64,000 nt of DNA from Escherichia phage dhabil, in sequence record MN850621.1; one strand, given 5' to 3'. Under the pieces are notes generated by a model. That model saw nothing but the letters and a program-made list of their open reading frames with translations, searched no databases and was not told where the DNA came from. A program made the translations under genes and the position numbers. Positions 3,836-6,502 of this stretch are shown here, piece by piece (positions within the stretch are counted from its first letter, which is position 1; each line of letters starts with the position of its first letter).

Positions 3836-4459
3836 TTATTTACGAGTCTTTTCGAACTGAGCTGCGTCACCGGCCAGTCGGCGTGCTTGACGAAGTTTGT
3901 TGTCAATTTCTTCGCGCATAGGCTGGGTGTACTTAAGGCCTTCAACCGTCAGATAGAGACGATAAAGGTCTGGTGTGTCCAGGTTGTTAATGTGTTGACC
4001 GTTACGAAGAACATTGAATTCACGAACAAGGTGTTTAGTTTCGGATTCTATTTCAGAAACCAAAGAAGCCAGTTGGTTATATTTTTTAACAATAGTGCTG
4101 GTGTCGAACTTGATTTTAGGTTTAGGAGCTTCTTTTACAGGCTCTGCTTTAGGTGCTGCCGCAGGTTTAGGTGGTGCAACTTTGGTTGGGGCTGCAGGTT
4201 TAGCAACAGGAGCTTTAGCTGGTTTAGCAGGTTTAGTAGCGCCACCGGCTACGATATCTTTAAAAGCTTTGGAAGCTTTGTAATATTCTTTCTGGTTACT
4301 AGTATCAAAACCATACATATCATAAACGTTTTTAAAGAACTCGGTAGTGGTTTTAGTCCCGGAAATTTTATCATAAGCAGCTTGCCACATATCTTTAGTC
4401 ATGCGCACGCTGGCTTCAGTCAGAACGCTTTCGTTCAAAAATTCATTGTAAGTTTTCAT
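3836..4459 (-). CDS. internal head protein, IPIII-like (207 aa) with N-terminal capsid-targeting sequence MKTYNEFLNE
   Basis: N-terminus matches the T4 internal-protein CTS (MKTYQEF-type, L-x-E gp21 cleavage context); Lys/Ala/Pro-rich basic core; T4 IPIII is similar in size. Confidence 0.7.
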   Translation of the reverse strand: MKTYNEFLNESVLTEASVRMTKDMWQAAYDKISGTKTTTEFFKNVYDMYGFDTSNQKEYYKASKAFKDIVAGGATKPAKPAKAPVAKPAAPTKVAPPKPAAAPKAEPVKEAPKPKIKFDTSTIVKKYNQLASLVSEIESETKHLVREFNVLRNGQHINNLDTPDLYRLYLTVEGLKYTQPMREEIDNKLRQARRLAGDAAQFEKTRK

Positions 4460-4499
4460 TATTGTTTCCTGTGTTAATTAACTTATCTATTTATACAAA

Positions 4500-4528
4500 A
4501 AAGGCCCAACCTTTCGGAAGGGCCTTTA
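4500..4528 (-). terminator. intrinsic terminator (GGCCC...GGGCC hairpin + T6, minus sense)
   Basis: Minus sense AAAGGCCCTTCCGAAAGGTTGGGCCTTTTTTG; core identical to the hairpin at 50656-50679. Confidence 0.6.
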
Positions 4529-4529
4529 A

Positions 4530-4694
4530 CCTAGGGTAACCTTGTCGGGGTTCCACCTGCTAGGCAAGTGTTCGGTGCGCCGTTTCAGCTGTGAGATAAG
4601 GGACTTTAAGAGGAACTCATGTACGCCTTAAAGTCGGGTCTTATTCAGGGAACTTCAGTCCGACGACTTACCGGTAGCGACCCGGTTTCTTGTT
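4530..4694 (-). ncRNA. candidate small stable RNA just 3' of tRNA-Arg (position analogous to T4 species 1/2 RNAs)
   Basis: 165-nt non-coding stretch between tRNA-Arg and the terminator, with nested inverted repeats (AAGTCG...CGACTT, CCTAG...CTAGG); no cloverleaf. Confidence 0.3.
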
Positions 4695-4770
4695 TGGTCG
4701 AGACAGTAGGGATCGAACCTACGACCCAGGACTTAGAAGGTCCTTGCTCTTCCTTCTGAGCTATGCCTCG
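4695..4770 (-). tRNA. tRNA-Arg (anticodon UCU), CCA encoded
   Basis: Manual fold: acceptor CGAGGCA/TGTCTCG, D-arm GCTC/GAGC, anticodon stem AGGAC/GTCCT with loop CTTCTAA, T-arm GTAGG-TTCGATC-CCTAC. Confidence 0.8.
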
Positions 4771-4774
4771 TATT

Positions 4775-4849
4775 TGGCGGACATGCATGGATTCGAACCA
4801 TGGACCAATTGATTAACAGTCAACTGCTCTACCACTGAGCTACACATCC
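4775..4849 (-). tRNA. tRNA-Asn (anticodon GUU), CCA encoded
   Basis: Manual fold: acceptor GGATGTG/CATGTCC, D-arm GCTC-AGTGGTA-GAGC, anticodon loop CTGTTAA, T-arm CATGG-TTCGAAT-CCATG. Confidence 0.75.
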
Positions 4850-4853
4850 AAAT

Positions 4854-4927
4854 TGGTGGCCCTGGGTGGAATCGAACCACCATCCAGCGATTATGAGTCG
4901 CTCGCTTGACCGTCCAGCTACAGGGCC
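4854..4927 (-). tRNA. tRNA with CAU anticodon (Met, or Ile if lysidine-modified), CCA encoded
   Basis: Manual fold: acceptor GGCCCTG/CAGGGCC, anticodon stem AGCGA/TCGCT with loop CTCATAA, T-arm GGTGG-TTCGATT-CCACC. Confidence 0.75.
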
Positions 4928-5012
4928 TTAATTCTATTATGAAAGGCTCTTTGAGGGAAGAACCTTTGGTAATAGAGGGTATTAATGATAGAGTAATAAT
5001 ATCACATAATTC

Positions 5013-5297
5013 TTAAAGCATATTAATATAGTCAAGTTTAATAGAAGCAATCTTCAAAGGGTTTTTAAAGATGTCGTATTCGACCAATCCATTTTCAGTT
5101 GCGGTATAAAAAGTAAAGTTAACAGAATTATAGCGATGGCTGTTAACTTTGAGTTTAACATCGCTTGAACTACGGCCAATATTAACCTGTTGAACATCAA
5201 GCACGGCATCTTTGCCGTAATTTCGAATCAACAACTCGGCTGCAACCTGATCGGATTTATAGCCATTCTCTGGATTAGTAACCTTAACGTATAACAT
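5013..5297 (-). CDS. hypothetical protein (94 aa)
   Basis: ORF track; abuts the upstream gene end. Confidence 0.5.
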   Translation of the reverse strand: MLYVKVTNPENGYKSDQVAAELLIRNYGKDAVLDVQQVNIGRSSSDVKLKVNSHRYNSVNFTFYTATENGLVEYDIFKNPLKIASIKLDYINML

Positions 5298-5678
5298 TTA
5301 ACCCTCGTCTACAATAGTGTGGGTATTGGCATTGACAATCTGCCACCAGTCAAAACGATTGGAACCGTAACAAGGCTTATTCTCGTTTTCTTTAATGATA
5401 TCGCGCAGTTCATCTTCAGTCGCGGCCTTTGCGATTAAGTCAGCATAACCGCCACGAGGATAATAGTTATCACCGGCAAAGAGCAAAAAGTTTGTTTTGA
5501 TATTCTTGAATTCTTCAAGAGTAATAACTGTTCCACCCGGTTGAACAATATCTACATAACTATATCCTAATTTCTGTGCTTCATTTACCGCTTCAAGCAG
5601 GGTGTCATGCGCCCACCCAATTTGGCAATCTGGTTTTTCAGATGGATTTGCTTGATAATCCGCATACACTTTATACAT
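5298..5678 (-). CDS. hypothetical protein (about 126 aa from MYKVYADY)
   Basis: Start moved to ATG at 5676-5678, which follows RBS AAAGGTGAG and overlaps the upstream stop (TAAAATG). Confidence 0.5.
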   Translation of the reverse strand: MYKVYADYQANPSEKPDCQIGWAHDTLLEAVNEAQKLGYSYVDIVQPGGTVITLEEFKNIKTNFLLFAGDNYYPRGGYADLIAKAATEDELRDIIKENENKPCYGSNRFDWWQIVNANTHTIVDEG

Positions 5679-5679
5679 T

Positions 5680-5877
5680 TTACTCACCTTTAGAGATTTT
5701 ATCCATAACGAAAGAGATTGAACCAATTAAGAATGCCACTACTAAAGAGATTATATTCTCGGAAGTTGTAAGCAAATCCAACATGAATCCTGCAAACATA
5801 CTAAAGCCAAAAGCAGTAACGGCGGCCAGTGCAGTAACATTTCTAATTAATTCACAACGTTTCATTTTATTCTCCAA
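5680..5877 (-). CDS. small membrane protein (65 aa, two hydrophobic helices)
   Basis: ORF track; ALAAVTAFGFSMFAGFML and [17 protein letters not shown] are TM-like. Confidence 0.5.
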   Translation of the reverse strand: MENKMKRCELIRNVTALAAVTAFGFSMFAGFMLDLLTTSENIISLVVAFLIGSISFVMDKISKGE

Positions 5878-5901
5878 TCACTCATTTGTTTTGATAGGGC
5901 T

Positions 5902-5930
5902 ATAGTATCATCACTAGAGCCCGTTGTAAA
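5902..5930 (-). promoter_or_regulatory. early promoter (TTTACA-N17-TACTAT, minus sense)
   Basis: Copy of the conserved promoter motif; inverted repeat GGGCT...AGCCC surrounds the -10. Confidence 0.5.
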
Positions 5931-5935
5931 TAACT

Positions 5936-6214
5936 TTAAAGTGCTTTTTTCAAAATATCAAAGTGCTTGGTGGCGATGTAAACGGTTTTCATTACAGAAG
6001 ATTCTTGAGCCGGGGAAATAACAATGCTCCCACCGTCTTTTTTAGCATGGTAACCGTCGCCCAGATAAACAGTACCTTTAAGTTCATCACCATTAAGACC
6101 GATAACCGGTTTACCTTCACGGCCTTTGTTTAGGGCTATAACTTCACTCATAACACTGGCTTCAGTGATAGGAGCCACTTTTTGAGATTTACTAAATTCT
6201 TGATAAGTTTTCAT
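5936..6214 (-). CDS. internal head protein (IPI/IPII-like, about 92 aa) with CTS MKTYQEF
   Basis: MKTYQEFSKSQKVAPITE N-terminus is a capsid-targeting sequence with an I-T-E cleavage context; the track's upstream MEIK start is less likely. Confidence 0.65.
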   Translation of the reverse strand: MKTYQEFSKSQKVAPITEASVMSEVIALNKGREGKPVIGLNGDELKGTVYLGDGYHAKKDGGSIVISPAQESSVMKTVYIATKHFDILKKAL

Positions 6215-6252
6215 TTTGATTTCCATTTGGTTAGTTTGTTTTTGATAGGCCT

Positions 6253-6281
6253 ATAGTATCATCACTAAAGCCCTTTGTAAA
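6253..6281 (-). promoter_or_regulatory. early promoter (TTTACA-N17-TACTAT, minus sense)
   Basis: Third copy of the conserved motif ...TGTAAAA(C/T)A...AGTGATGATACTATAG.... Confidence 0.5.
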
Positions 6282-6292
6282 ACATTTTTAAA

Positions 6293-6502
6293 TTATTTTA
6301 GCCATGAAGAATTTTCAGAGACCCAGCTATCTATATCTGATTGCGGGCCAAAGAAGTAGGCAACCCCATTAGATAACTCTCCCGAAAGCCAATTTATACC
6401 TTTCAGGCTTTCTTTAAATTCTTCAGGAGTACAAGAAACCTCTATTGCCACCGAAGAGGCTGACTCCATTGCTTCTGTTAAGAATTCTTTGTATGATTTC
6501 AC
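6293..6502 (-). CDS. small internal-protein-like ORF with [13 protein letters not shown] (69 aa)
   Basis: N-terminus matches the CTS pattern of the two other internal proteins in this window. Confidence 0.55.

Follow-up and report, generated by a model that had tools for sequence, protein, structure and literature searches.

The closest described relatives of the proteins considered here are the internal proteins (IPs, also written Ips) of phage T4, which carry an N-terminal capsid-targeting sequence (CTS). In T4, gp22 is the docking partner of CTS cargo, and the gp21 protease trims the CTS. The processed form of IPI, called IPI*, is an injected inhibitor of GmrSD type IV restriction, and IPIII (or Ip3) is an injected inhibitor of the ECOR17 GmrS/GmrSD doublet that also has a role in head assembly. 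IPIII is required on ECOR17 and works in the cytoplasm without its CTS (Srikant et al.). At least ten Ips have been reported, and T4 Ip1, Ip2, and Ip3 each inhibit one distinct GmrSD variant (Silas et al. 2025, PMC12373910). Here we compare these systems with three genes, termed A, B, and C, in a stretch of 64,000 nucleotides (nt) from Escherichia phage dhabil (sequence record MN850621.1), which we call the window.

The first 10 residues of IPIII are enough for encapsidation, and the propeptide of T4 IPI is longer, comprising 19 residues (PMC9026906). Targeting rests mainly on residue 4, which is aromatic, and on residue 7, which is Phe, and processing rests on residues 8 and 10 (PMC9026906, summarizing Mullaney and Black 1996). 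In addition, the hyperplastic regions of T4-type phages carry promoter-stem-loop (PeSL) cassettes (Arbiol et al. 2010, PMC2839356). By analogy with T4, we consider it likely, at a probability of roughly 0.7, that A, B, and C are T4-type internal head proteins that are packaged, trimmed by gp21, and injected, with B serving as an anti-GmrSD factor and with A and C as further first-response anti-defense cargo.

Three genes headed by a capsid-targeting sequence

All three genes are open reading frames (ORFs) on the minus strand. Gene A (3836-4459) codes for 207 amino acids beginning MKTYNEFLNE, gene B (5936-6214) codes for 92 amino acids beginning MKTYQEF...PITE, and gene C (6293-6502) has a GTG start and codes for 69 amino acids with an (M)KSYKEF leader. 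The mechanical ORF of gene B reaches four codons further, to position 6226, and the in-frame ATG that lies four codons 5' of the start given here falls within the likely ribosome-binding site. Positions 3400-7200 of the window are 100% identical to Escherichia phage dhaeg (MN850609), a Dhakavirus of the JS98 group. Because the DNA around this segment is only 99.4-99.8% identical to dhaeg and indels occur elsewhere, the phage represented by the window is a sibling of dhaeg and is distinct from that exact record.

Across all six frames of the 64-kb window, K[TS][YF]xEF is found at three places only, namely right after the start codons of A, B, and C. In a composite of about 171 kb, to which the window and the remainder of dhaeg contribute, one extra occurrence was found; it has no start codon before it and falls in a 23-codon stretch. 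Shuffled sequences give a chance expectation of about 0.27 occurrences anywhere. The observation that three ORFs begin with the T4 CTS, which a preliminary description of this DNA had made, is real and far beyond chance. A motif scan found no fourth CTS gene in the window or in the parts of dhaeg outside it.

The three leaders also follow the CTS rules established for T4. Tyr4 and Phe7, which are the targeting residues, are present in A, B, and C. The gp21 processing motif (L/I)-x-E↓, in which the arrow marks the predicted cut, appears as LNE10↓S and LTE15↓A in A, as ITE18↓A in B, and as LTE10↓A in C. Protein B is without a position-10 site, and its ITE18↓A is aligned with ITE19↓A of T4 IPI. 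Homologs of A and C retain the CTS leader, with Ile at position 7 in Marfa.

Components of the corresponding head-assembly machinery are encoded on the plus strand of the same window. These include the gp21 prohead protease (36944-37579; Pfam Peptidase_S77, E = 1.1e-103) and the gp22 scaffolding core protein (37610-38425; Pfam T4_CASP, E = 2.4e-90). Pfam matches were likewise obtained for gp20 (the portal), gp67, gp23, and gp24, and a 142-amino-acid ORF without a Pfam match is found at the gp68 position. The predicted maturation site of gp23, FLTE63↓AEIGGDHGY, includes the LTE↓A tetrapeptide that is common to A and C, gp24 has an LRE10↓S site, and gp22 has many L/I-x-E↓A/S sites. Signal, cleavage motif, and machinery are mutually consistent. 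Given the motifs, the machinery genes, and the degree of conservation, we predict with high confidence that A, B, and C are targeted and processed through the CTS.

If these proteins behave as their T4 counterparts do, the CTS of each would dock it onto the gp22 scaffolding core during prohead assembly, and gp21 would then cut the tag after E10 and/or E15 in A, after E18 in B, and after E10 in C. The mature proteins would remain in the head alongside the DNA until their ejection into the next host, which would precede all phage gene expression. In the new host, B would bind and block a GmrSD-family type IV restriction enzyme, and A and C would provide further first-response anti-defense cargo. 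For protein A, binding of the packaged DNA might be an additional or an alternative role. The ORFs, their motifs and homologies, the machinery genes, and the cassette swap described below can be read directly from the DNA, and the steps of packaging, cleavage, ejection, and target inhibition are argued from T4 precedent. Confidence in the specific roles proposed for A and C is low to moderate.

Relatives and predicted roles of the three proteins

As judged from its sequence, protein B is a clear ortholog of T4 IPI (Ip1), even though its body had gone unrecognized in the preliminary description. It matches the Pfam family IPI_T4 (PF11634) with 92.8 bits at a cutoff of 25 (E = 1.4e-26), belongs to the PHROG class “internal virion protein,” and is 57% identical to T4 IPI over its full length, with the ITE↓A site aligned. 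The solved structure of IPI* (PDB 2JUB) is matched with E = 8e-23 over 72 residues, and its mature chain 2-74 aligns to residues 20-91 of the query. Predicted cleavage at PITE18↓A19 would yield a mature protein of 74 amino acids with an isoelectric point (pI) of 9.0. The gene sits between trna.4 and 57B, which is the slot of ipI in T4, and the dhaeg record already annotates its product as an “internal head protein.”

By extension from T4, B probably acts by blocking a type IV restriction enzyme of the GmrSD family, one directed against sugar-modified hydroxymethylcytosine DNA, and we place moderate confidence in this assignment. As a separate observation, no alpha-glucosyltransferase is annotated in dhaeg (100000-149999; dhaeg_196-201) between a-gt.2 and gene 47, which is its position in T4.

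Protein A appears from sequence searches to represent an unannotated and widespread CTS family. It falls into phrog_2280, whose function is unannotated, and its relatives occur in 143 phage records from 8 or more genera, where they are always labeled “hypothetical protein.” These genera include Dhakavirus, Mosigvirus-like coliphages, Kagamiyamavirus, Kanagawavirus, Karamvirus, Marfavirus, and others. The predicted propeptide of A is MKTYNEFLNE↓SVLTE↓A, with cleavage after E10 and/or E15, and the mature protein would be about 21.6 kDa with a pI of 9.7 and a net charge of +13. In an AlphaFold2 (AF2) model, helical domains form the N- and C-terminal parts of the protein, the C-terminal one being predicted confidently, and a disordered Pro/Ala/Lys linker of about 40 residues (73-110) joins them. 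Even distant members keep a CTS-like leader with an (L/I)(T/S)E↓ site and the three-part architecture, with conservation reaching from Dhakavirus to Karamvirus, Kanagawavirus, and Marfavirus, and the second site, E↓A, is nearly invariant. Examples of their leaders are MLKFKDILTE↓S in Marfa, MLNFKEFITE↓SEYDMITE↓A in PG7, and MLNFNEFITE↓SVELVTE↓A in Kosakonia.

This protein had initially been called IPIII-like, a description that holds for size and charge alone and fails for both sequence and genomic position. BLASTP aligns only the leader of A with IPIII and IPII, and body-only hhalign comparisons with IPIII, IPII, IPI, and other IP bodies were not significant (P = 0.16 for IPIII). The alignments to T4 IPI, IPII, and IPIII that had been suggested as a check join B to IPI and leave A with a leader match. 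The genes also occupy different loci: ipIII and ipII of T4 lie between e and denV, whereas A lies between the tRNA/rnaD region and e.8, and e of dhaeg is directly followed by denV with nothing between them (dhaeg_144/145). On these three grounds, A was rejected as an IPIII or IPII homolog. When the IPIII body was used as a tblastn query, no dhaeg or JS98 record was among the 30 listed of 261 matching records. Fold and sequence-profile searches of A against the PDB were uninformative and returned noise. NCBIfam likewise yielded no match for the proteins examined here.

A somewhat unlikely alternative, though the strongest of those considered, is that A acts chiefly within the core, as a protein with a structural or DNA-associated function that neutralizes charge, organizes packaged DNA, or aids head assembly as reported for IPIII. 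Its strongly positive charge and high pI favor this alternative, as does its long disordered linker rich in Lys, Pro, and Ala, a composition that resembles histone-H1-like tails. Gene A has its own late promoter as well. A T4-type late promoter box, TATAAATA, was found by sequence scan on the minus strand at 4488-4495, which is 28 nt upstream of the gene A ATG; it is the only such box in 3700-6600, and the PG7 homolog of A also has TATAAATA upstream. Furthermore, IPIII mutants of T4 show slower head assembly and polyheads (PMC9026906), and Lys residues are the only ones through which the IPs contact DNA phosphates (PMC9026906, PMC3012670).

However, T4 IPIII is similar to A in size and charge and yet is a specific GmrSD inhibitor that is active without its CTS in the cytoplasm. 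A protein as basic as A can consequently still be an inhibitor, and A could fill both roles. It is also evident that A is not merely a substitute for IPIII, because the two co-occur in phages p000v and UGJNEcP3; a strict replacement of IPIII by A was rejected for this reason.

Protein C proved to be a genuine gene product by sequence criteria, and its body is not as new as was first proposed: the gene is conserved, without annotation in several genomes, and its product distantly resembles the named protein Ip6. The GTG start of C overlaps the TGA stop of 57B (AAGTGA), and a GAGGA sequence is located six bases upstream. Predicted cleavage at FLTE10↓A11 would leave 59 amino acids with a pI of 4.1 and a net charge of -6. 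The protein is assigned to phrog_23867 (E = 2e-42), and it is unannotated in the records of dhaeg (MN850609), JS98 (NC_010105), and IME08 (NC_014260). Homologs were found by tblastn in 28 phage records from 5 genera, with identities of 97-99% within Dhakavirus and 53-77% in the four other genera. The latter include Kagamiyamavirus EcS1 (76%), Erwinia phage Gravdalen (72%), and the Citrobacter Moonvirus phages CF1, Merlin, and Ursula (53-57%). Outside Dhakavirus, the homologs start with ATG, abut the upstream gene, and keep the CTS leader.

An alignment of 12 diverse members of the C family has 14 invariant columns, with little or no variation at the E↓AME junction or in the motifs WLS and FGPxxDIxxW. 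An exhaustive hidden Markov model search of 1.84 billion representatives recovered four convincing relatives, all of which are 66-74 amino acids long and bear a CTS. The AF2 model of C is a compact alpha/beta fold with a predicted local distance difference test (pLDDT) score of 81.7. When it was compared with viral models by Foldseek, Ip6 of phage VR7 was matched with a template modeling (TM) score of 0.71 (E = 4.5e-3). A profile-profile comparison of the C body with the Ip6 body, for which the CTS was removed on both sides and five Ip6-family members were used, gave a probability of 91%, E = 9e-7, and a score of 35, whereas 100 column-shuffled controls reached a maximum score of 17.7. With a single Ip6 sequence, the probability was 55% (P = 1e-4), and comparisons with seven other IP bodies gave P values of 0.13 or higher. 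A tblastn search with Ip6 returned no Dhakavirus record among the 25 listed of 246 matching records, and a PDB sequence search with the C profile returned noise only. These profile and model comparisons suggest that C is a distant offshoot of the named Ip6 family that has evolved along its own line.

It is quite improbable that C, and possibly B, is left out of the head and acts in the infected cell, for example with the 57B product Acb1, the CTS-like leader being a by-product of recombination. Such a role would suit the overlap of the C start with the 57B/Acb1 stop and the lack of a late promoter of its own, and CTS-coding DNA does act as a recombination boundary. C is also acidic, unlike known IPs, and T4 IPIII is active without its CTS when expressed in the cell. 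Nevertheless, the leader and the L-x-E↓A-M-E junction of C are conserved at the amino acid level in five genera at 45-77% overall identity, with positions 4, 7, 8, and 10 kept. No homolog free of the CTS was found among the 1.84 billion representatives, and ipI of T4, whose product is packaged, likewise has no TATAAATA box between the 57B stop and its ATG. Net charge across the C family ranges from -6 to 0, so acidity is not conserved; this range also weakens the idea that C is a DNA mimic through its acidity.

That C is only a chance ORF, as its GTG start, its mere 69 codons, and its missing annotation in three records might imply, is effectively refuted by its conservation as a protein with ATG starts elsewhere, its PHROG match, its invariant columns, its compact predicted fold, and its good Shine-Dalgarno sequence.

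Several points count against the proposal that all three proteins are injected anti-defense cargo. In the literature searched, we found no virion proteomics or N-terminal sequencing for Dhakavirus or JS98, and packaging and cleavage of A, B, and C are therefore only inferred. Within 3700-6600, no TATAAATA late promoter was found for B or C. The breadth of conservation of A, which is unusual for an IP, would be expected of a structural or DNA-binding protein no less than of a fast-evolving inhibitor, and the acidity of mature C departs from the classical basic IPs. Within the IPI family, activity is known for T4 Ip1 alone, against GmrSD-CT596 and Eco94GmrSD, and the pairing of Ips with GmrSD enzymes is narrowly specific (PMC12373910). 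With an identity of only 57%, the target of B may thus differ from that of T4 Ip1 and is perhaps not GmrSD-CT596. Likewise, five further GmrSD systems were not reproducibly inhibited by ip4-10, Ip6 among them (PMC12373910), which leaves an anti-GmrSD role of C unproven, and nothing on the function of Ip6 was found in the literature searched.

Cassette exchange, regulatory elements, and neighboring genes

The genome of JS98 reveals how the content of this locus changes. JS98 keeps C unchanged, and its B slot holds an unrelated 97-amino-acid CTS protein (MKTYQEFIKESTDLYS...) without a Pfam match. Both ORFs lie on the minus strand of NC_010105 (5466-5759 for the 97-amino-acid CTS ORF and 5839-6048 for C), and both are unannotated in RefSeq. 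Homology between the window and JS98 runs through 57B, C, the promoter cassette, and about the first 7 IP codons, is lost over the IP body (5934-6192), and returns with the stop codon and the cassette that follows it. IP bodies are thus exchanged as cassettes between conserved CTS-coding DNA and PeSL-like early-promoter elements.

Three near-identical cassettes of the form TTTACA-N16/17-TACTATAG(G/C/A)CCTATCAAAA lie on the minus strand, one after each CTS gene. The first (3748-3775; TTTACA-N16-TACTAT) is PeSL-like and lies downstream of A, before e.8. The second (5902-5930) lies downstream of B, before trna.4, and marks the right-hand limit of the IP-body cassette that is exchanged. The third (6253-6281; TTTACA-N17-TACTAT) lies after C and upstream of B and has a GGGCT/AGGCC stem; an internal stem of the GGGCT/AGCCC type is seen in the cassettes after C and after B. 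All three align with one another and with an element upstream of T4 ipI (GTTTACA-N17-TACTAT). As predicted promoters and terminators, these cassettes fit PeSL elements.

Two to five CTS genes are arrayed at the same place in other genera, as in CF1, Merlin, VR7, M719, and DK-13. Such arrays occupy 3897-5472 in VR7, 234-1755 in pEC-M719-6WT.2, and 580-2034 in DK-13. In phages of the Gaprivervirus type, five or six tandem CTS ORFs lie between 57B and trna.4, and several of these are annotated as hypothetical. One CTS ORF of this type (MNIKTYNEFLAE...) has two extra residues before the CTS.

The gene order of T4 is kept in the window as e.6, e.8, A, stable RNA, tRNAs, trna.2/3/4, B, C, 57B, 57A, 1, 3, and 2, with A, B, and C set into it. 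The tRNA cluster (4695-4927, minus strand) consists of tRNA-Arg(tct), tRNA-Asn(gtt), and tRNA-Met(cat), which are the only matches in the region to reach Rfam gathering scores; two overlapping matches below threshold were ignored. Gene A is located about 235 nt downstream of the tRNAs. The earlier statement that the CTS genes flank this cluster is therefore loosely right, with the qualification that homologs of trna.2/3/4 separate B and C, on the upstream side, from the tRNAs.

A GC-rich hairpin with a T-run, GGCCC...GGGCCTTTTTT, was read from the sequence at 4496-4527 on the minus strand. It closes the tRNA/stable-RNA unit directly before the late promoter of gene A, and the T4 rnaD/rnaC region ends in sequence that aligns with its GGCCTTTT part. 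Downstream of tRNA-Arg, at about 4560-4694 on the same strand, some 60 nt are nearly identical to the 5' part of T4 stable RNA D (species 2 RNA), and a second block conserved with T4 rnaD reads CACAGC.GAAACGGCGCACC. By this resemblance, the stretch is probably an rnaD homolog; Rfam has no family matching it. A terminator-like hairpin, AAAGGAGAC..GTCTCCTTT, is located directly after the gene A stop (3812-3833, minus strand).

Gene 57B (6499-6954, minus strand) codes for Acb1, a member of the anti-CBASS phosphodiesterase family by its Pfam match (PF23474, E = 6.8e-59). It is directly upstream of C, and the overlap of its stop codon with the C start is consistent with translational coupling. Because Acb1, the Ip6-like gene C, and the IPI ortholog adjoin one another, they form a compact anti-defense stretch. 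Further upstream, a 221-amino-acid ORF (8611-9276, minus strand) lies between genes 3 and 2 in a segment of about 640 nt that is absent from dhaeg. Its HH..PR/EEH..AH motifs are reminiscent of an HNH-type homing endonuclease, and it has no Pfam match. In VR7, a MobB-like endonuclease is encoded at the position of this ORF.

Comparison with described internal proteins and their loci

Known targets exist for Ip1-3 only, and several active GmrSD variants are without a known inhibitor (Silas 2025, PMC12373910). The locus described here offers three candidates for such orphan type IV systems or for other defenses, namely an Ip1 ortholog, an Ip6-like protein, and a broadly conserved basic CTS protein. 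Since injected IPs act before phage gene expression, they decide whether T4-like therapeutic phages, such as those of the JS98 group, withstand restriction by wild E. coli. With 43% of its residues diverged from T4 Ip1, B is also useful for mapping specificity determinants. Moreover, the analysis exposes gaps in annotation: the dhaeg, JS98, and IME08 records omit C, and the alternative IP of JS98 is omitted as well.

An anti-restriction function for these proteins fits the precedent of Ip1-3. The view of diverse CTS proteins as injected anti-restriction factors is already established (Silas 2025), with work by Repoila in 1994 said to be an early source, and the present analysis applies this standard model to new sequences. 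The gain is incremental: the targeting signal had already been established, as had the principle and the arms-race model, and nothing here would surprise a T4 specialist. A bolder and rather doubtful proposal is that A is an unrecognized family of injected head proteins and that A, together with the acidic C that is co-transcribed with Acb1, neutralizes first-response defenses other than the GmrSD enzymes blocked by Ip1-3. In such a scheme, the histone-tail-like linker of A could tether an inhibitor to the incoming DNA. If this were true, the CTS delivery route would extend beyond anti-type-IV restriction.

Among the described internal proteins, IPIII resembles A in having a CTS and in the properties of its mature form, which is 20.4 kDa with a pI of 9.65 for IPIII* as compared with 21.6 kDa and 9.7 for A. 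The two differ in that their bodies share no homology and their genes lie at different loci, and A is distinguished by its disordered Pro/Ala/Lys linker and its all-helical prediction. Protein B is far closer to its T4 counterpart IPI, with which it shares the length class, a long propeptide ending in ITE↓A, the genomic slot, and an upstream early promoter. The difference between these two lies in the 43% of B residues that are not the same.

The comparison of C with Ip6, the T6-type protein also called “IpVI” that is found in 246 phage records, gives a more mixed picture. Both are encoded at the same polymorphic ipI locus, both have a CTS with an L/I-x-E cleavage motif, both are small (69 versus 77 amino acids), and both contain the motif ..L..L.....G(P/S)...I..W. 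In contrast, body identity is only about 25%, C is without the insertion of about 10 residues and the basic C-terminal tail of Ip6, and the pI of Dhakavirus C is 4.1 as compared with about 7.8-9.0 for Ip6. Furthermore, C directly follows 57B with overlapping stop and start codons, whereas ip6 of VR7 is located at the trna.4 end of its array, and PHROGs places C in a separate family, phrog_23867.

At the level of the locus, the arrangement conforms to described PeSL cassettes (Arbiol 2010), in that each CTS gene here is bounded by a conserved early-promoter element. It is likewise comparable to the polymorphic ip loci of T-even phages, where tandem CTS genes are found by 57B and their content varies among close relatives, as it does between the window and JS98. 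There is no difference in principle from those loci, and the left exchange boundary here lies within the CTS-coding sequence. A boundary within the CTS is reportedly what the older model of polymorphic ip loci, attributed to Repoila and colleagues in 1994, would lead one to expect.

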